The translations under genes and the position numbers were made by a program. Shown piece after piece: positions 21,104 through 64,000 of a stretch of DNA of 64,000 nt. The notes beneath the pieces were generated by a model. It was not told the origin of the DNA. It saw only the letters and a program-made list of their open reading frames with translations, and made no database searches. The stretch's first letter is position 1. Each line of letters begins with the position of its first letter. Source of the stretch: Nitrosopumilus sp. (lineage in GTDB: Archaea; Thermoproteota; Nitrososphaeria; Nitrososphaerales; Nitrosopumilaceae); contig OZ245003.1 in assembly GCA_965223425.1 (NCBI GenBank), forward strand, positions 2,240,001 through 2,304,000, read 5' to 3'.

Positions 21104-21105
21104 TA

Positions 21106-22214
21106 TAGTCTCGAGCAAAAGTTCTTGAGATCAAATATGTTAGACAGAAATACATTTTGATCACGCCGCACCACGCATTGCAATGCCCACAGTAAAATCC
21201 GAAGACCTGAAGAAAGCGTACAAGAGGGAGAAGAACCCTCGTGTCAAGATCAGAATGGCGGCCGTAAACATGGTGTGCATGAACAATGAAAGCATTCAAC
21301 ATGTGGCAGACTCGCTCATGCAGTGCCCCAACTGGGTGTCCTTCTGGGTGGAACGCTTCAAGGAGGAGAAGGGCGGCATAGACGCCCTCCGGGATCTTCC
21401 AAAGACAGGCAGGCCGCCAAAGGTTCGGTTGGACAAGATTGCAAGGGTTGTATCAGATGCAAACAGCAGCGGCATTATTACGCCAAAAAGACTCAAAAGC
21501 GACATACAAAAAAGATTCAAAGTAAAATACCACATAACCAGCATCAGAAAGATAATGCACAAGCTTGGAATGTCTGCCAAGACGGCTCAGCGCATCCACA
21601 TCAGCAGGGCAGAAATTGACAAAATCAAAAGGTGGCAACACAATGCAAAAAGGCGGATTTCACGCCTGGAATTGAAGGGTTTTACAACTGTCGTTTTTGA
21701 CGAATCGATATTCATCGACGATCCTGCAAGTGGCGCAAAGTACTGGTCACCAAAAGGGGAGCCAATCACAACGACATACAGGGGACGGCACGGCAGGGTG
21801 GTGGTGGCATACGGCTCCATTGCGACAGACGGCAGGCAGTTCTTTAGGACATATGACAGGTTTGACAAGGAGACGGTTCTGCAATACATCAGGGAGATGA
21901 CAAGTCATTTTGGCAAGGTGACAATCATCATGGACAACGCGCCGCAGCACAAGGCAAGGATTGTAAAAGAGTTTCTTGCAGGCAACCCCGATGTCAGGAC
22001 AATATGGCTTCCGACTGCAACGCCTGAGCTCAGTGTAGTTGAGGAGTACTGGCATCAGGCAAAACGGGACGTGTCGGTATCTGAATATTACGCTACGGTT
22101 GTGCACATGCGCCATGCAATGTCAGAATATTTCAGGACAGCCCGTCCCAAGCTTGATGCGATGAAGTTTATCTGTAGAAGGTCGCTCACTCTCAAAAACT
22201 TTTGATTGACACTA
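21106..22214 (+). mobile_element. IS630-family element B, copy 1
   Basis: About 25-bp imperfect TIR TAGT...ACTA with TA on both sides. Confidence 0.92.
21183..22205 (+). CDS. IS630 transposase
   Basis: FDES, MDNAPQH and PELSVVE motifs. Confidence 0.93.
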   Translation: MPTVKSEDLKKAYKREKNPRVKIRMAAVNMVCMNNESIQHVADSLMQCPNWVSFWVERFKEEKGGIDALRDLPKTGRPPKVRLDKIARVVSDANSSGIITPKRLKSDIQKRFKVKYHITSIRKIMHKLGMSAKTAQRIHISRAEIDKIKRWQHNAKRRISRLELKGFTTVVFDESIFIDDPASGAKYWSPKGEPITTTYRGRHGRVVVAYGSIATDGRQFFRTYDRFDKETVLQYIREMTSHFGKVTIIMDNAPQHKARIVKEFLAGNPDVRTIWLPTATPELSVVEEYWHQAKRDVSVSEYYATVVHMRHAMSEYFRTARPKLDAMKFICRRSLTLKNF

Positions 22215-22687: not shown

Positions 22688-23991
22688 CAGTAGTTGGGAT
22701 TGTACATTTTGGATATAGGCCAAACTGATCATTTTGAGAACAAAACACGATCAACCAGATCCAAATACAAGGCATGCTCACCCACCTTAACATGTACGAA
22801 AAAGATGGGCAAACACACCAACAGAACCAAGACATCAGGGGGTTTAAAATCTTCCAGTCCGCACTGCAGCGCCTGAACCTTGCCTTTGGCACAAGACACA
22901 ACACGCTGTACTGCCTCAGGGATGCAGCGCACATGCTGCTGGTCATGGCCAGCTCCAACGGATACGCCAACGGCGCGCGAGATCTCGGCTCTCCCGGCAT
23001 CCGCATGCCGTCGGGCAGCTGGCTGCTCAAAAAGCTGCGCATCACAAAGCCGGACAAGATGAGCTGTTTCTGCGACCAGATGATGCATGATACGGTCAAC
23101 ACGGCATGCCGCAGCATGAGGCGACGCATCAGCAACGAAACAACGGTAGCTGCAATAGACAAGCACAAGATTCCGCACCATGACAAAAACCCCGACCTCA
23201 AACACCTCATACAGTCAAAATACGAGTCAGGAACGTACAGGTTTGAGTCATACATGACATCCAAGATGGTGCAGGGCGGCAAAGAGGCCAACCTGTGCTT
23301 CAGTCCGGTCACCCGGGGTACATCCAACGGCGAGTTCGTGCGTAAAACCATCAAAAAGTGCTCCAAGCTGCACCTTGGAATCAATCTTTACCTTCTTGAC
23401 AGGGAGTTTTACGCAACAGACGTGATGCGGACTGTCAGATCGCTTCACAGGCATTTTATCATGCCGGCAAAAAAGAATGCCGGCATCAAGCGCGCCATTG
23501 TACAGCACGCCCAAGGAAAGCGCGGTGATGTCTCCAGGTACACCATAAAATCAGGCTCCGAAAAGTTCACGTTCAACCTGGTTCTGATCAGGGATGACGC
23601 CAGGAAAAAAGACGGCACCATGTTTGACAGGTATCGCGCATTTGCAACGTCGCTGCCATGCGAGAATGAAAGGGACGTTGTCAAGTACATCCCAGAGCAG
23701 TACAAAAAACGTTGGGGAATTGAAACGGGGTACAGGTCTGCAAAGAGCGTACGCGCGCGCACTGCCAGCAGGAACCCCTCCGTACGGATGCTTTTGTTTG
23801 TCTTGTCACTGGTGATAAACAACATCTGGATAGGCCTGCGTCGCACGGCGGGCAGACAAAGATATCATGTGACGCTTGCCGGTGTTTTAAACAGGATGAT
23901 CCGCGTGTTTGCAGAATATGTGTATGCCAGGTGGCCACCGCCTATCGGGTGATTTGTGGGCTGTTTTGGAACGGTACAATCCCAACTACTG
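22688..23991 (+). mobile_element. ISH3/IS4-like element A, copy 1
   Basis: Perfect 18-bp TIR CAGTAGTTGGGATTGTAC; no target duplication. Confidence 0.9.
22774..23952 (+). CDS. ISH3/IS4-type DDE transposase
   Basis: AAID, LDREF and YKKRWGIETGYR signature. Confidence 0.9.
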   Translation: MLTHLNMYEKDGQTHQQNQDIRGFKIFQSALQRLNLAFGTRHNTLYCLRDAAHMLLVMASSNGYANGARDLGSPGIRMPSGSWLLKKLRITKPDKMSCFCDQMMHDTVNTACRSMRRRISNETTVAAIDKHKIPHHDKNPDLKHLIQSKYESGTYRFESYMTSKMVQGGKEANLCFSPVTRGTSNGEFVRKTIKKCSKLHLGINLYLLDREFYATDVMRTVRSLHRHFIMPAKKNAGIKRAIVQHAQGKRGDVSRYTIKSGSEKFTFNLVLIRDDARKKDGTMFDRYRAFATSLPCENERDVVKYIPEQYKKRWGIETGYRSAKSVRARTASRNPSVRMLLFVLSLVINNIWIGLRRTAGRQRYHVTLAGVLNRMIRVFAEYVYARWPPPIG

Positions 23992-25999
23992 ACAGTATCT
24001 TCTATGATGGCCTGATTCACATCAATTGTTTCTTGATCTGATTTGCCCAAGACTTGTTCTGGAAAAAAGTTGGTTCCTAATTCCAAGAAACCAGCATACT
24101 CCCCATATAATGACATGATTAGTGATTTGATGGAAGATATTTCGCCTATTGGGAGGCCAATATCTTTTGCCTCACGTCTTGTTATCAAATATTGGTGAGA
24201 GAATCTCTCCTTTAACAATTCTTTGACAATTTTGGAATTTTTTTGCTTGTTGGTACAGTGAAATTTTAGTAGCGTATTTGCCATGTATTCTACTTGGTTT
24301 TCTGCCCTCTTTATGGCACCTAGTGTAACTGGATGAATGTTTGACGTAGTGAATTGGATTAACAATCGCTCACAAAACAGACAACATTATTCAACCACAA
24401 GATCTAGATCCCAGTGTATGGCAGAATCCGCATGAAATACAACGATTCCATAGTAATACCGGCAGACAAAAGATTCCTGTCCGGCGTCTCCAGTGCGCGC
24501 CTGCGCAGCATGCAAAAAAAGGAGACAGATCCCAGGGCCGCAGCAAGGCTGCTGGCATATGCCATGCGCAAGGAGGGCATGTCCATACGCCAGATATGCA
24601 TGGCCCTCAACAGGTCATATTCCACAGTACGGGACTGGCTTGTGCGCGCCGCACAGCTTGGCACCTACGGCAGGTACGACATCAAAAACAAAGGCGCGCC
24701 AAACAAGCTCGATCCGGAACAGACAAAGCAGCTGCGCGCAGACCTGCTGGCAGGCCCGCGCAGTTGCGGCTTTGAGTCCGGAGTGTGGACGGCACCGCTG
24801 CTGGCCGTACACATCAGAAAAAAGTTCGGCGTGCAGTATGCCACTGTCAGCATATATGACATACTGCACAGGATGGGCTTTTCGTGCAGAAAGCCGCGTC
24901 CAAAGCACCCAAGTCAGCCTCAGAATCAGAGAAAAAAGAGTTTAAAAAAAAGCAGGGGAGGTAATCCGGAGTCATCCAGACCATACGGTGGTTACAGTTG
25001 ATGAGGCCTCCTTTATCATTGGGTGGAATACCAAGAACGGGTGGTACCTCAAGGGCAGGCCCGTCACCACTCCAGTCAGCCTGTCGCGCAAAAGGTTCTA
25101 CTCGTTTGGGGCGCTGTACGACGGCGGCTTTGACTGCAGGTTCTATGCCAAGGCCGACAGCTACAGCTTTGTGGACATGCTCGGACACCTGCATCTCAAG
25201 CACGGCAAGATCATCGTCTTTCTTGATAACGCATCGTACCACAAGTCAAAGATGGTCAATGATTTTGTCGACTCGTATGACGGCGACATAGTCCCTGTTT
25301 ACTTGCCCGTGTACACCCCGGAGCTGAATACCACGGAGGGGCAGTGGAGGCTGTTAAGAAGGGCCACTGCAAACGTGATGTATGAAAGCACAAAGGTGAT
25401 GAAGGAATCCATATGGACAATGCTGGATAGACGTGAGGTCAGGATAACAAGGATGAGCGGTTATTGATCCTAGTCACTACGCCAACAGTTTGAAGATTTC
25501 TACCATATTGCGAGAGTTGATTTTTGCATCATCACGAGCTAGTTCAAAATAACCCATTACGTCCTCAACATTTATTGGAATTGGAAGTGAAGGTGCGTTT
25601 GGAATTTGTTCCTTTGGACCAAGACTATGTGTGTGGTTGATGGGTCTATTGGGCTCAACTGTCCCACCTTGGACATGAATATGTTATCAGCCCCTAGGGC
25701 AATCAGTGTTCCGGTGCTAAGGCATTTGAATGGAACTATGACTTCAAATTTATCGCAATATTCTCTAATTAAATTCACTAGTCCAAATCCTGCATTAGTG
25801 ATCCCTCCCAATGTGTACAAAATCAGAGTTATTTTCTTTTGATGACCTATTGCATCTAGATGCTCATAAAATAATGGAATAACGTCATTGCCAATTCTAG
25901 TTTCAAAATTTCTTTTATCGCCGGTAAAATAGACTATAACCCTAGAGTTGGTCTTTTCTTCTAGTTCCTGATAAGATCAAGTCTTGTCCTGTCCACCAT
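23992..25999 (-). pseudogene. SDH/ClpP-class serine protease, frameshifted and split by IS630-A
   Basis: VIVYFTGD, LYTLGG, SxGTLIALGAD, LSPIDP and IHPVTLG fragments in order. Confidence 0.85.
24347..25479 (+). mobile_element. IS630-family element A, copy 2 (transposase frameshifted)
   Basis: Near-identical to copy 1; CG on both sides; ORF split into 24414..25001 and 24988..25467. Confidence 0.92.
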
Positions 26000-51339: not shown

Positions 51340-52536
51340 TTATCCCCTACTCAGCGTGGATACAATTTTGATCACATCGCCATCTTTTAATTTCTGCTCA
51401 CCGCTGATTCTTTGTTTGGTTTTACAGTCAATTGCGTGTAGGAACCCCCTGGCAATGTCTGCATGAATCAAACCCGCTAAATCTTTTGCAGTAGAGTTTT
51501 GGGGGAGTAGTTTGGAATCAGGTAGAATGACACCGTCCTTGTTGGTTAGTTTCGCTTCATCTTCTACAGGATATACAACAATAAATTTCAAAGAATCAAA
51601 AACAGCACTGTTTAAGATTTTTTGAATTCCAGTAGACGTGATTTTAGAAAATACTGATTTCACCAAATCCAGTGCTTTTTGTTGGGGGGGCAGAACTTCT
51701 TGTCCTTCAATTATTTTAAAACCCTCATCGCCTGGAGAATAGGCTACAATCCCAGCTTTTGATGCCTTGCGCAAAAGCAATTCTGTTTCTGCACTGCAAG
51801 GAATCACAGGATCAGAGATTTTTTTAAGAATGTCAAGATCTTGGCAGAGATCGGCTTTGTTTGCGGCAACAATCATTGGTTTGGTATTTTTTCTTAATTC
51901 TTTAACAAAGGTTCGGATATCAGAGTCTTCCCATTCTTTTGGATTTTTAGAAATAAGACCCAGCTTTTGCAACACCTCACGTACTTTGTAATCTTTGATC
52001 CCCAATCCTGTGAATCGTTTTGCAATGCCATCAGTAAGCTTGGCTCTTTTCTGATCGATTTCTCGGGTAATTTTATCCCATTCCCTTTTGAGAATGTCTG
52101 CAAACCATTGATCAAACTCGTCTTGAACAAACATTACATCTTCTAGAGGATCATGGGTTCCGGTTGGAACAGGCTGTCCTTGGATGTCAGTAGTTCCAGC
52201 AATATCTACCACATGAATCAGGACTTCAGCTTGTCGTGCATCATCAAGAAACTGGTTTCCCAATCCCTTTCCTTCGTGTGCGCCCGGAACCAGTCCTGCA
52301 ACATCAATTAGTTTAACTGGAATGAGACGGGTTCCATTAACGCATAGCGTGTTTTCATGTTGAATATCAAAATGTTTGCAGGCACAATCTGCCTTGACAT
52401 AGGCTACGCCAACATTGGGCTCAATCGTGGTGAAAGGAAAATTGCCTGATGCCACAGGGGTTTCTGTTGCAGCTGAAAAAAACGTAGACTTGCCAACATT
52501 TGCTTTTCCCAATAAACCAATTTGCACTATTGTCAA
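51340..52536 (-). CDS. ychF: YchF/Obg-family translation-associated GTPase
   Basis: GKANVGKS, FPFTTIEPN, DVAGL and TGS domain. Confidence 0.92.
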   Translation of the reverse strand: MTIVQIGLLGKANVGKSTFFSAATETPVASGNFPFTTIEPNVGVAYVKADCACKHFDIQHENTLCVNGTRLIPVKLIDVAGLVPGAHEGKGLGNQFLDDARQAEVLIHVVDIAGTTDIQGQPVPTGTHDPLEDVMFVQDEFDQWFADILKREWDKITREIDQKRAKLTDGIAKRFTGLGIKDYKVREVLQKLGLISKNPKEWEDSDIRTFVKELRKNTKPMIVAANKADLCQDLDILKKISDPVIPCSAETELLLRKASKAGIVAYSPGDEGFKIIEGQEVLPPQQKALDLVKSVFSKITSTGIQKILNSAVFDSLKFIVVYPVEDEAKLTNKDGVILPDSKLLPQNSTAKDLAGLIHADIARGFLHAIDCKTKQRISGEQKLKDGDVIKIVSTLSRG

Positions 52537-52744
52537 AAACCCAATTCTACTTATTAGTATTGCAGAAATCGGTTCTGTGAAGTTATCGGGGGTTATATGT
52601 CAATTCCCAAAATGTACAAGCCTCCAAACCGCAAGATATTCGCTGAAAGCGATAAAGTCAATATCACAGAAATATGCGCCGAACTCTGATCTAATGGATA
52701 TGGCGGCTACATTCACAAAGATGGTCAATCATTGCATCAAGATA

Positions 52745-53850
52745 TAGTCTAGAGCAAAAGTTCTTGAGATCAAATATGTTAGACAGAAATACATTTTGAT
52801 CACGCCGCACCACGCATTGCAATGCCCACAGTAAAATCCGAAGACCTGAAGAAAGCGTACAGGAGGGAGAAGAACCCTCGTGTCAAGATCAGAATGGCGG
52901 CCGTAAACATGGTGTGCATGAACAATGAAAGCATTCAACATGTGGCAGACTCGCTCATGCAGTGCCCCAACTGGGTGTCCTTCTGGGTGGAACGCTTCAA
53001 GGAGGAGAAGGGCGGCATAGACGCCCTCCGGGATCTTCCAAAGACAGGCAGGCCGCCAAAGGTTCGGTTGGACAAGATTGCAAGGGTTGTATCAGATGCA
53101 AACAGCAGCGGCATTATTACGCCAAAAAGACTCAAAAGCGACATACAAAAAAGATTCAAAGTAAAATACCACATAACCAGCATCAGAAAGATAATGCACA
53201 AGCTTGGAATGTCTGCCAAGACGGCTCAGCGCATCCACATCAGCAGGGCAGAAATTGACAAAATCAAAAGGTGGCAACACAATGCAAAAAGGCGGATTTC
53301 ACGCCTGGAATTGAAGGGTTTTACAACTGTCGTTTTTGACGAATCGATATTCATCGACGATCCTGCAAGTGGCGCAAAGTACTGGTCACCAAAAGGGGAG
53401 CCAATCACAACGACATACAAGGGACGGCACGGCAGGGTGGTGGCATACGGCTCCATTGCGACAGACGGCAGGCAGTTCTTTAGGACATATGACAGGTTTG
53501 ACAAGGAGACGGTTCTGCAATACATCAGGGAGATGACAAGTCATTTTGGCAAAGTGACAATCATCATGGACAACGCGCCGCAGCACAAGGCAAGGATTGT
53601 AAAAGAGTTTCTTGCAGGCAACCCCGATGTCAGGACAATATGGCTTCCGACTGCAACGCCTGAGCTCAGTGTAGTTGAGGAGTACTGGCATCAGGCAAAA
53701 CGGGACGTGTCGGTATCTGAATATTACGCTACGGTTGTGCACATGCGCCATGCAATGTCAGAATATTTCAGGACAGCCCGTCCCAAGCTTGATGCGATGA
53801 AGTTTATCTGTAGAAGGTCGCTCACTCTCAAAAACTTTTGATTGACACTA
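52745..53850 (+). mobile_element. IS630-family element B, copy 2
   Basis: TAGT...ACTA ends with TA duplication; near-identical to copy 1. Confidence 0.93.
52822..53841 (+). CDS. IS630 transposase
   Basis: DDE_3 motifs as in copy 1. Confidence 0.93.
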   Translation: MPTVKSEDLKKAYRREKNPRVKIRMAAVNMVCMNNESIQHVADSLMQCPNWVSFWVERFKEEKGGIDALRDLPKTGRPPKVRLDKIARVVSDANSSGIITPKRLKSDIQKRFKVKYHITSIRKIMHKLGMSAKTAQRIHISRAEIDKIKRWQHNAKRRISRLELKGFTTVVFDESIFIDDPASGAKYWSPKGEPITTTYKGRHGRVVAYGSIATDGRQFFRTYDRFDKETVLQYIREMTSHFGKVTIIMDNAPQHKARIVKEFLAGNPDVRTIWLPTATPELSVVEEYWHQAKRDVSVSEYYATVVHMRHAMSEYFRTARPKLDAMKFICRRSLTLKNF

Positions 53851-55006
53851 TAGGGTTGAAAGAAGACACTCACAATATGAAGAGGCTGTCCATGTTATGT
53901 TATCATGAATTACGTAACTATGACATTTTATCAACATACAAACTAAATGCAATATCAAGAGCTGCAGGCACATTATCAAACAGAAAACAATCAGTCAAAC
54001 GAGGTGTCAGAATAAGAGACCCAATAGTCAAAAATCCCTTTATGACAAACTGTTACGGCATAAAACACAACGGTGCACTACTAACAATCCCATACAAGAA
54101 ACATAACCCAATCAACATTTTACTCAACGATCACACCCAAAAAATCCTGTCTGATCCCGCCTTGACGGTGCGCTCGTTTTCACTGACTGCCCTCAACATC
54201 AGTCTTTGTGTTTCAAAAAAAGTACAAGAGATAGAGTGCACCAAGAAAGTTGGAATAGACAGAAACCTAAGAAATGTGACGTGTGGGAACGAGGAAGAGG
54301 TGACAGTCTACAAGACAAACAAGCTGCTATCCATAAAGGAGAACACAATACACGCCAGGGCAGGCTTCCACAGAAATGACCGCAGGAAGAAAAATCAGTT
54401 CTACAAGGAAAAACAGAGAAGACTGACTGACAGAGCAAAGCAGTACATCCACAGAATCTCAAAGGATATAGTAGACAACGCAGTCAAAAACAAGACTGCA
54501 ATCGTCATGGAAAACCTGAAAGGAATAAGAAAATTGTACCGAAAAGGAAATGGTCAGGGCAACAAGTACAGGCGCAGATTGAACGGGTGGCAATTCTACG
54601 AGCTGCAACGCCAAATAGAATACAAAGCCCGATGGGTCGGGCTCCCTCCAGTCGAGACAGTAGACCCAAGAAACACGAGCACGCAGTGTCCGCAATGCGG
54701 AAAGAGACTCCAAGAGGACATGCAACAGCATCGTAAACTGTCGTGTAATAATTGCGGTTTGTTTATGGACAGGGATATTGTCGCTGCCATGAACAACATA
54801 TCACGCAAGCTGCCCCCTAGGTTTAGGGGCAGTAGAGATGACATATGTGAAGCGCAGTCCGGCACTTTTGAGCCGGCGATGACGGAATCCGGCACACCAT
54901 TGGTAATCCGAATAGTCGATATGTCAAAGTCGAGTTATAGGGGTTAACTCCCGATAACTTCACAGAACCCAGAAATCGTTTAATGCAGTATTCACGATTT
55001 TATAGC

Positions 55007-55555
55007 ATGTCAATAGTGATTACCGGAAGTCCGGGAGTTGGAAAGCATACCATAACACAGGAAATTGCTGAAAAACTCAGATTGCCCGTAATTGACATTA
55101 ATAGTGTGGCAAAAGATGCCGGATTATTTGAGAAAAATGGCGATACAAACGAGGTTGATACTTCAAAATTAGGAAAAATTCTTGAACAGGAAACTTTGGA
55201 GAAATGTGTGATTGTCGGGCATTTGGCACCTTATGTTTTAGACAAAAACAAAATAAAAATAATGATTGTTTTGAGACGAAGTCCTTATGACTTGATTCCC
55301 ATATATGAGAAGAGAGGATACACGGACAAAAAAATCACAGAGAATACCGGCAGCGAGATACTAGGCATAATTGCACATGATTCATCAAGTAAATTTCAAG
55401 AAAAAGTGTTTCAGGTAAACACCAGTGAAAAAAGTATTCCAGAAGCAGTGGAAAAGGTAATGACTGTAATCTCCACCCACAAGGGCGGCGAAGAGGTAGA
55501 CTGGCTTGACTTGGTTACAAAAAACAGTGACTTGAAAAAATTTTTTGCTGATTGA
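55007..55555 (+). CDS. Archaeal adenylate/NMP kinase (AK6/Fap7-like)
   Basis: ITGSPGVGK P-loop, VGH and RGY..KI.EN motifs. Confidence 0.85.
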   Translation: MSIVITGSPGVGKHTITQEIAEKLRLPVIDINSVAKDAGLFEKNGDTNEVDTSKLGKILEQETLEKCVIVGHLAPYVLDKNKIKIMIVLRRSPYDLIPIYEKRGYTDKKITENTGSEILGIIAHDSSSKFQEKVFQVNTSEKSIPEAVEKVMTVISTHKGGEEVDWLDLVTKNSDLKKFFAD

Positions 55556-62520: not shown

Positions 62521-63825
62521 CAGTAGTTGGGATTGTACATTTTGGATAGCCCAAACTGATCATTTTGAGAACAAAACACGATCAACCAGATCCAAATACA
62601 AGGCATGCTCACCCACCTTAACATGTACGAAAAAGATGGGCAAACACACCAACAGAATCAAGACATCAGGGGATTTAAAATCTTCCAGTCCGCACTGCAA
62701 CACCTGAACCTTGCCTTTGGCACAAGACACAACACGCTGTACTGCCTCAGGGATGCAGCGCACATGCTTCTGGTCATGGCCAGCTCCAACGGATACGCCA
62801 ACGGCGCGCGAGATCTCGGCTCTCCCGGCATCCGCATGCCGTCGGGCAGCTGGCTGCTCAAAAAGCTGCGCATCATAAAGCAGGACAAGATGAACCGCTT
62901 CTGCGACCAGATGATGCATGATACGGTCAACACGGCATGCCGCAGCATGAGGCGACGCATCAGCAACGAAACAACGGTAGCTGCAATAGACAAGCACAAG
63001 ATTCCGCACCATGACAAAAACCCCGACCTCAAACACCTCATACAGTCAAAATACGAGTCAGGAACGTACAGGTTTGAGTCATACATGACATCCAAGATAG
63101 TGCAGGGCGGCAAGGAGGCCAACCTGTGCTTCAGTCCGGTCACCCGGGGTACATCCAACGGCGAATTCGTGCGTAAAACCATCAAAAAGTGCTCCAAGCT
63201 GCACCTTGGAATCAATCTTTACCTTCTTGACAGGGAGTTTTACGCAACAGACGTGATGCGGACTGTCAGATCGCTTCACAGGCATTTTATCATGCCGGCA
63301 AAAAAGAATGCCGGCATCAAGCGCGCCATTGTACAGCACGCCCAAGGAAAGCGCGGTGATGTCTCTAGGTACACCATAAAATCAGGCTCCGAAAAGTTCA
63401 CGTTCAACCTGGTTCTGATCAGGGATGACGCCGGGAAAAAAGACGGCACCATGTTTGACAGGTATCGCGCATTTGCAACGTCGCTGCCATGCGAGAATGA
63501 AAGGGACGTTGTCAAGTACATCCCAGAGCAGTACAAAAAACGTTGGGGAATTGAAACGGGGTACAGGTCTGCAAAGAGCGTACGCGCGCGCACTGCCAGC
63601 AGGAACCCCTCCGTACGGATGCTTTTGTTTGTCTTGTCACTGGTGATAAACAACATCTGGATAGGCCTGCGTCGCACGGTGTGCAGACAAAGATATCATG
63701 TGACGCTTGCCGGTGTTTTAAACAGGATGATCCGCGTGTTTGCAGAATATGTGTATGCCAGGTGGCCACCACCGCCTACCGGGTGATTTGTGGGCTGTTT
63801 TGGAACGGTACAATCCCAACTACTG
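62521..63825 (+). mobile_element. ISH3/IS4-like element A, copy 2
   Basis: Same 18-bp TIR as copy 1; no target duplication. Confidence 0.9.
62605..63786 (+). CDS. ISH3/IS4-type DDE transposase
   Basis: Near-identical to 22774..23952. Confidence 0.9.
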   Translation: MLTHLNMYEKDGQTHQQNQDIRGFKIFQSALQHLNLAFGTRHNTLYCLRDAAHMLLVMASSNGYANGARDLGSPGIRMPSGSWLLKKLRIIKQDKMNRFCDQMMHDTVNTACRSMRRRISNETTVAAIDKHKIPHHDKNPDLKHLIQSKYESGTYRFESYMTSKIVQGGKEANLCFSPVTRGTSNGEFVRKTIKKCSKLHLGINLYLLDREFYATDVMRTVRSLHRHFIMPAKKNAGIKRAIVQHAQGKRGDVSRYTIKSGSEKFTFNLVLIRDDAGKKDGTMFDRYRAFATSLPCENERDVVKYIPEQYKKRWGIETGYRSAKSVRARTASRNPSVRMLLFVLSLVINNIWIGLRRTVCRQRYHVTLAGVLNRMIRVFAEYVYARWPPPPTG

Positions 63826-64000
63826 ATGCTACATCCGCACCAAATACATATGTGTGAGGATCAATTACGTATGGTCGCTTTAATTTTACTAGCATAGAAG
63901 TGATTCTTTTTGTTATACCTTCTATGATATGACTTGATACAATAACGTCACAGTTTTTTAAATCACTGTTCTCTAACCATGCCATCTCTCTACTGATGTT

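Follow-up and report, generated by a model that had tools for sequence, protein, structure and literature searches.

TnpB biology has been worked out for the IS200/IS605 and IS607 families, where scarless excision goes together with insertion beside a fixed short motif that at the same time serves as target-adjacent motif (TAM). Here we describe a tnpB gene of an ammonia-oxidising archaeon that is enclosed by ends of another kind. It lies within a window, i.e. the whole stretch of DNA analysed, of 64,000 nucleotides (nt) of Nitrosopumilus sp. (assembly GCA_965223425.1, contig OZ245003.1, positions 2,240,001-2,304,000, forward strand). The element is bounded by terminal inverted repeats (TIRs) as known from the IS6 family and by an exact 8-bp direct repeat, the left copy of which is directly preceded by T followed by A or G (TR). 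It is probably a non-autonomous IS6-type element (approximately 1.25-1.45 kb) with a homing module, composed of TnpB and an omega RNA, as its sole cargo.

Association of TnpB with DDE transposases is in itself documented. Six DDE-associated TnpB branches (DDE-1 to DDE-6) with inverted terminal repeats are described by Altae-Tran et al. (2023; PMC10691335), whose text names IS630 and further mentions solo TnpBs with ends nearly identical to those of transposase-bearing elements, suggesting mobilisation in trans. A 2026 review (PMC13565253) names ISL2, IS630 and IS1031 and states in its text that pairings of DDE transposases with OMEGA systems (obligate mobile element guided activity) are rare in prokaryotes. 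With the DDE branches our locus shares a TnpB placed inside symmetrical inverted ends that also delimit a DDE transposase element. It differs in that TnpB is described there as encoded together with the transposase, and IS6 is not among the families named in the text of that study; this clade may nevertheless already sit in one of its unnamed DDE branches. A literature search of main texts retrieved no report of TnpB with the IS6 family or of this archaeal TnpB clade. The first-pass annotation of the window had called the partnership unusual, which has to be qualified: TnpB in DDE/TIR elements is, according to the texts cited, in print for other IS families. What appears to be new is a TnpB in an IS6-type DDE/TIR element that is always non-autonomous, with the duplication as putative guide seed and a TTR beside it.

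The IS1341 group and the TnpB-reRNA (right-end element RNA) system of ISDra2 resemble our locus in having a compact TnpB with D-E-D triad and zinc finger. In the IS1341 group, the structured RNA likewise overlaps the gene at its 3' end and borders on the element's right end, and a short T-rich, TAM-like motif is likewise found in the left flank. On the contrary, IS200/IS605 elements possess asymmetric hairpin ends and make no duplication (as stated in the text of PMC13565253), whereas TIRs and an 8-bp duplication are present here and a hairpin is formed at the right end only. Another difference from IS200/IS605 is that the duplication separates the motif from the element and represents the first 8 nt of the presumed guide. 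Fanzor is similar in being a TnpB-type RNA-guided nuclease carried by DDE/TIR transposons that make duplications, with a guide read from the flank. Fanzor elements are eukaryotic, in contrast to the archaeal hosts and prokaryotic-size TnpB dealt with here, and their 5' duplication is described in the text of the same review as part of the TAM, whereas in our case the motif lies outside the duplication, which would itself act as guide seed. Finally, GGTTCTGT ends, 8-bp duplications and co-resident IS240-type DDE transposases are shared with the IS6 family (IS26, IS257/IS431, IS1216, archaeal IS6). Unlike IS6 elements, tnpB elements encode no transposase and display an orientation-specific TR motif; moreover, the resident archaeal transposases are longer (345-378 amino acids), have N-terminal zinc fingers and score below the NCBIfam cut-off.

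The locus is organized as follows (window coordinates):

52563-54977: tnpB element (1291 bp without the nested IS630) together with its target duplications
52560-52562, plus strand: TTG, TAM-like motif directly 5' of the left duplication, also present in empty sites of relatives
52563-52570: left 8-bp target-site duplication, CAGAAATC, exact match of the right copy
52571-52595, plus strand: left terminal inverted repeat, 25 nt, GGTTCTGT-type, starting with GGTTCTGTGAAG
52577-52744, plus strand: tnpB 5' fragment, codons 1-56 of a 420-codon open frame (tblastn, list of open reading frames)
52745-53850, plus strand: nested IS630-family element, 1106 bp, with TA duplication at 52743-52744 and 53851-52
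52822-53841: IS630 transposase open reading frame (NCBIfam IS630, 158.9 bits, cut-off 100)
53850-54947, plus strand: tnpB 3' part, codons 56-420 and stop, with RuvC D-E-D and CxxC..CxxC zinc finger
54752-54969, plus strand: region with an omega-RNA-like structure, overlapping both the 3' end of tnpB and the right repeat
54945-54969, minus strand: right terminal inverted repeat, 24/25 complementary to the left arm (96%)
54970-54977: right 8-bp duplication, CAGAAATC, predicted first 8 nt of the guide
54970-54989, plus strand: predicted guide region, i.e. duplication and about 12 nt of flank, length assumed from other TnpB systems
51340-52536, minus strand: flanking ychF/Obg-like GTPase gene, outside the element
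54983-55555, plus strand: flanking adenylate-kinase-like AAA_18 gene, outside the element

Most of this anatomy had been proposed in the first-pass annotation. The 25-bp inverted repeats (24/25) and the exact duplication were reproduced at the same coordinates. The nested element of 1106 bp plus TA gives an IS630 profile match, and its removal leaves 1291 bp, the length of eight intact copies elsewhere in the genome. The stop codon is located at the inner edge of the right TIR as claimed: the right repeat arm begins with the three bases of TAA (54945-54947). The statement that RuvC triad and zinc finger are intact holds for the residues themselves but not for the gene, since in the window IS630 breaks tnpB after codon 56, so that full-length TnpB cannot be produced from this copy, although the RNA region at its 3' end is intact. 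Contigs in all four sequencing runs examined join 52741 to 53850, skipping 1108 bp, and derive from tnpB copies without IS630. The 20-nt end yields 23 forward and 23 reverse matches in the genome (with at most 3 mismatches) and the reversed control pattern 0 + 0, so that the repeat ends are more than chance.

TnpB matches Pfam PF07282 with 72 bits (cut-off 26.3) and the NCBIfam model NF040570 (guided_TnpB) with 110.1 bits (cut-off 100), and its closest solved relatives are Cas12f and TnpB. RuvC residues D192, E276 and D364, present also in the window copy, and zinc-finger residues C335, C338, C354 and C357 are invariant in an alignment of 14 sequences (51-88% identity). Family-A copies in this genome contain CTG at codon 23, where homologues start with Met (window 52577-52645); the sole common start codon in frame upstream of it is the GTG at bases 7-9 of the left repeat, with which the 420-codon frame opens.

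We examined whether the same architecture accompanies related TnpBs. Among 3696 candidates scored, 1433 TnpB relatives were retrieved at E<=0.001, the named ones belonging to Nitrosopumilus, Nitrosarchaeum, Nitrosotenuis, Nitrosotalea and "Thaumarchaeota"; the viral contig collection searched contained none. Ends were regarded as paired when they were of GGTTCTGT-type and agreed at >=14 or 15 of 25 positions, and duplications were counted at >=7/8. Of 79 loci in species-representative genomes (46-91% identity), 51 have paired ends and 30 a duplication (29 exact); most remaining loci have retained a single end or are truncated by the end of a contig, and one related genome accounts for 31 of the 79. 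Metagenomes contributed 80 loci (42-65% identity), 50 of them with paired ends, 27 more with a single end and 13 with a duplication (10 exact). Nitrosopumilales genomes and metagenomes combined thus comprise 159 loci, of which 101 have paired ends and 43 a verifiable 8-bp duplication. Other families of the order added 40 loci (29-49% identity), 21 with paired ends and six with a duplication (three exact). Across all three sets, paired ends delimit 122/199 loci at 29-100% protein identity. The delimited elements measure approximately 1.2-1.7 kb, and their open reading frame begins inside the left repeat or close to it and ends at the inner edge of the right one. Judging by this size, the 122 elements have no room for a transposase beside tnpB, no transposase search having been run on them. 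This architecture characterises a whole TnpB lineage, deep and widespread, of ammonia-oxidising archaea.

Further copies with different 8-bp duplications, anticipated in the first-pass annotation, were indeed found in the genome (G000, i.e. this assembly; 2.64 Mb in two contigs, 99.99% complete). It contains 14 full-length copies of the tnpB element. Eight of these are exactly 1291 bp long with an open 420-codon frame devoid of stop codons, and the ratio of nonsynonymous to synonymous substitutions (dN/dS) among them is 0.37. An own 8-bp direct repeat was detected in 8/14 copies, that of the window included; in family A, six are exact and one (1025392) agrees at 7/8 positions. Two copies form a sub-family (1290 and 1328 bp; about 82% protein identity); the inner sequence of their repeats differs, and each is flanked by a duplication of its own.

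The insertion site of the window copy was compared with that of relatives. In 11/11 loci of relatives, the ychF-like gene lies next to the adk-like gene in divergent orientation, and the element is absent between them in 9/9 loci whose sequence was inspected (L160-L168), in line with the predicted empty site. Exactly one CAGAAATC is present in eight of these nine empty sites, and the ninth has CAGAAATT; in relatives, TTG precedes CAGAAATC (TTA in one of the eight). Since the element-free sites contain a single CAGAAATC, the duplication arose on insertion. No relative with two copies of CAGAAATC but without the element was seen, and no contig bridging the empty site was found in the four sequencing runs examined.

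Several copies in this genome deserve separate description. Two inverted copies 126 kb apart (G000:C1:1325308-1326598 and 1451399-1452689) have swapped right-hand 8-bp flanks, which points to inversion of the segment between them; homologous recombination and intramolecular replicative transposition would account for this inversion equally well. Another pair (G000:C1:654737-656024 and 783913-785206) shares the same left flank, has ACG instead of GGT at the left end and is without TR motif, so it looks like a duplicated, damaged variant. A derivative of 344 bp (G000:C1:1199933-1200276) retains between repeats the last 260-300 nt or so of the tnpB element, i.e. the RNA region; it is flanked by the duplication GGATAATT, with TTG on the expected side, and may represent an RNA-only rider. 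A unit of 6853 bp with repeats of the same family (24/25) and the duplication CATTATTC occupies G000:C1:1201385-1208237. It carries two genes for IS630-type transposases, one that is IS110-like and one of the methylase-HNH kind, and looks like a composite or heavily nested element.

The flanks of elements show a pronounced asymmetry. Read with tnpB on the plus strand, the motif consists of T at -2 and A/G at -1 of the left duplication. It is present in all 37 duplication-verified elements (30 loci of other genomes and seven copies here), with T at -3 in 29/37, as well as in locus L191 (CTA) and in 13/13 metagenome rows (TTA 6, TTG 4, ATA 3), two of which are one insertion seen twice and one of which probably repeats a genome locus. 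In total, the motif accompanies 51/51 duplication-verified insertions (37 + 1 + 13), on the tnpB-upstream side only. A further genome copy outside the 37 (2033639) has TTG. When the requirement for a duplication is dropped, the motif is found on 74/94 distinct left flanks versus 16/126 mirrored right flanks. Elements that carry the IS6-type transposase served as control: in 14 of them with exact duplications the motif occurs on 5/28 sides, which is near chance, and in two with 7/8 duplications on 1/4 sides. A miniature inverted-repeat transposable element (MITE) of 141 bp without RNA region has TTG on the corresponding side; this is a single case, and MITEs with verifiable duplications in this genome (about five) are too few for testing TR in the absence of the RNA region. 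Since the motif is absent from transposase-only elements and tied to the orientation of tnpB, TnpB must shape which insertions exist. By its position, the TR motif would be the TAM, and the duplication together with the right flank would be the guide of a presumed cleavage reaction.

The last 240 nt plus 20 nt of flank were aligned from 20 elements. The following helices were recognized:

54752-54756 with 54804-54808, plus strand: helix of the RNA-like region
54765-54768 with 54787-54790, plus strand: helix of the RNA-like region
54809-54815 with 54827-54833, plus strand: helix of the RNA-like region
54839-54845 with 54920-54926, plus strand: helix of the RNA-like region
about 54932-54943 with 54948-54961, plus strand: terminal hairpin

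In the four helices, changes on both sides with pairing kept concern 13/23 pairs. Standard pairs occupy 98.0% of alignment cells, as compared with 75.6% in 500 shuffles and 35-47% when partners are slid by 1-3 columns. Cells with compensatory double changes number 113, versus 46.9 expected, a value reached in 0/500 shuffles, but this covariation is largely one switch between two sub-clades (10 vs 10 sequences) and therefore reflects few independent events. Eleven pairs switched together between the sub-clades with pairing retained. In the eight intact copies, synonymous divergence amounts to 0.064 over the first 984 nt and drops to 0.012 over the last 210 nt; in the window copy, these 210 nt fold with -71 kcal/mol (z -3.55). 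The hairpin is specific to the right end, where the right repeat contributes its inner half as one strand and the sequence immediately upstream provides the other. Its mean energy, calculated from 32 distinct ends, is -10.9 kcal/mol on the right versus -4.4 kcal/mol on the mirrored left, the right being more stable in 29/32; among decayed copies, survival of the right end is more frequent than that of the left. No Rfam family corresponds to this region, the sole match being a spurious one to a human long non-coding RNA model (E 0.064). The structure of the last ~220 nt, conserved and covarying, continues into the right repeat, as expected for an omega RNA. In the one metatranscriptome run that contains part of the window (Logan contigs), depth rises towards the tnpB 3' end, and one RNA-library contig passes 54969/54970 into the flank of another copy, which is a weak indication. 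Contigs of this kind cannot show ends, strand or level and may include DNA, and they were not counted as support.

We wondered which transposase these ends belong to. Genes for IS6-type transposases with the same family of ends, suggested by the first-pass annotation, are resident in this genome. They encode DDE transposases of 340-345 amino acids that match Pfam PF13610 (DDE_Tnp_IS240) with 44.8 bits (cut-off 27). Their best NCBIfam match is the IS6 equivalog, covered over the whole profile with 111.2 and 102.8 bits; since this is below the cut-off of that model, we call them IS6-like. Their elements are bounded by GGTTCTGT-type repeats with 8-bp duplications, and this genome and related ones together yielded 14 such elements whose duplications are exact. 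The TIRs of tnpB elements begin with GG(T/C)TCTGT and show 24-25/25 identity over 25 bp, with exact 8-bp duplications; the published IS6 inverted repeat, as given in the text of PMC2920175, begins with the same 8 bases, GGTTCTGT. Arms of transposase elements agree with those of tnpB elements at 20.1/25 positions (mean best identity), as against 15.6 when the inner 17 bases are shuffled, and the arm ending one transposase remnant in this genome matches the arm of a tnpB element from another genome at 24/25. None of the 25 transposase loci searched contains tnpB, and no composite of tnpB and IS6 transposase inside one repeat pair was detected in these loci. Y1 HUH transposase (PF01797) and serine recombinase (PF00239) gave no match at E<=0.01 in this nearly complete genome, while control genomes matched. 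IS6-like transposases occur in 118/251 sampled genomes of the order at E<=1e-8, a tally that includes one unpublished genome (G112) which entered no other part of the analysis. As they lack a transposase of their own, tnpB elements are at most non-autonomous derivatives of IS6. The idea of a DDE-mobilised element with TnpB, put forward in the first-pass annotation, is supported, all checks suggested there having turned out in its favour; mobilisation itself may be presumed from the shared ends.

IS6-like elements often have passenger genes. One of them (locus L121, G000:C1:915423-918405) is 2983 bp long, is flanked by the duplication CAATAGAG and encodes, besides a 345-amino-acid transposase, a 446-amino-acid DNA methylase fused to an HNH nuclease domain. 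Given their size of 2.5-4.6 kb, IS6-like elements of relatives must also carry passengers.

We propose that the IS6-like transposases of the genome operate in trans on the ends common to both kinds of element, which would give rise to a further insertion together with its 8-bp duplication. The 3' RNA would then be transcribed beyond the right repeat, and by this read-through each copy would acquire a guide composed of the right copy of the duplication and the next bases of the flank. TnpB with this RNA might recognise and cut the unoccupied allele, in which 5'-(T)TR directly precedes the single 8-bp target followed by the same flank, and repair from the occupied copy would re-install the element (homing, or drive). 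The occupied allele would be immune: at its left junction the TAM is followed by no more than 8 matching bases, and at its right junction the match is complete but the preceding bases are those of the repeat end ...ACC. With empty alleles being converted in sister chromosomes or after DNA exchange between cells, only TAM-adjacent insertions would be expected to spread.

We favour this homing conversion as the probable origin of the asymmetry over steering of integration, yet the data do not separate the two. It is conceivable, albeit with considerably lower probability, that TnpB, with or without the RNA, takes part in target choice, so that the DDE transposase inserts exactly beside TTR and homing is secondary or absent. 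TnpB/omega RNA would then read TTR and the IS6-like transposase would make its 8-bp staggered cut exactly beside it, so that every new copy would possess a valid TAM from the outset and its own duplication would serve as guide seed. In favour of such coupling, all 51 simple insertions have the motif, including genome copies with 94-100% identical proteins, position +1 from the motif is exactly where the duplication begins, elements with IS6 transposase but no tnpB are unbiased (5/28 sides), and the 141-bp MITE without RNA region has TTG on the corresponding side in the one case available. However, homing requires and explains the same geometry, the MITE controls are too few for distinguishing between the two, and to our knowledge coupling of this kind is known neither for IS6 nor for TnpB. 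Target preferences do occur among DDE transposases, and TR might be a preference of a dedicated IS6-like transposase, read asymmetrically via the differing ends and unrelated to TnpB. This is improbable in our view: the controls comprise only 14 elements from other sub-lineages of the transposase, but the 5/28 sides of transposase elements from the same end family are close to the 13% on the mirrored side of tnpB elements, the bias strictly follows the orientation of tnpB across widely diverged repeats, and the motif is found exactly where the 5' TAM of a read-through guide must lie.

The next explanation, that TnpB itself acts as the transposase by means of its RNase-H-like RuvC fold and that the IS6-like ends are convergent or borrowed, we consider very unlikely. 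It would suit the 17/46 tnpB-positive genomes without an IS6 match at E<=1e-8, some of which contain many tnpB copies; these genomes are, however, fragmented, and repeats break contigs. Besides, co-resident IS6-like elements have the same ends and likewise an 8-bp duplication, and TnpB is an RNA-guided nuclease in every tested case known to us. The classical link of TnpB to IS605 and IS607 is the only source of the remaining idea, namely that a tnpB-only IS200/IS605-type element (IS1341 group) became nested by chance in an unrelated MITE. We found nothing in favour of it, and it was discarded as having practically no likelihood: 122/199 loci have paired ends, the right repeat is base-paired into the conserved RNA, the genome contains no Y1 transposase, and in all families the open reading frame occupies the whole element between its repeats, which is not compatible with chance nesting. 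IS605-type ends in homologues, which would speak for such nesting, were not seen; homologues down to about 30% identity carry GGTTCTGT-type ends.

Several observations weigh against a non-autonomous IS6-type element that spreads by homing. With respect to its mobilisation, no tnpB element contains a transposase, action in trans may only be surmised, and the 111.2 and 102.8 bits of the resident transposases are below the NCBIfam IS6 equivalog cut-off of 125. A PF13610 match (E<=1e-8) is present in 29/46 tnpB-positive versus 89/205 tnpB-negative genomes, cross-tabulated by hand from related and hence non-independent genomes, and the enrichment is only modest. The 17 tnpB-positive genomes without a match at that threshold have been mentioned; 4/5 rechecked tnpB-rich genomes have none even at E 1e-3, their assemblies consisting of 9-240 contigs with tnpB copies at contig ends. 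IS6 elements are thought to move replicatively, without excision, and the published "restorative" role of TnpB is therefore not directly applicable. With respect to the motif, it is present in 12/14 genome copies, the two without TR sharing the altered left end and left flank, and in only 1/5 duplication-verified distant tnpB elements (29-36% identity), whose motif may differ. A twofold gain by homing alone hardly explains 51/51 insertions at the motif. Expression of the RNA, finally, is indicated weakly, by contigs of a single metatranscriptome.

The homing of an IS6-type tnpB element, if it takes place as proposed, and its alternative of steered integration raise the same question, namely how a nuclease cargo imposes its TAM on insertions of a transposase that it does not encode. 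If integration is TAM-directed, the element would be a self-reprogramming transposon, distinct from both CRISPR-associated transposons and restorative homing of the IS605 type. For a family of archaeal TnpBs of about 395-420 amino acids, a natural read-out of the TAM and an RNA scaffold are available from these data, and tnpB elements help to explain the repeat load of these genomes.

Two other repeats were noticed in the window. The 1106-bp IS630 element is present in the genome in seven full-length copies at >=99% identity, two of them within the window (52745-53850 and 21105-22213), and was thus evidently active recently. A repeat of about 143 bp occurs at window positions ~23850-23992 and 63683-63826 and in more than 20 copies in the genome (85-99% identity), one of which sits in a 4085-bp IS6-like element (G000:C1:256390-260474).

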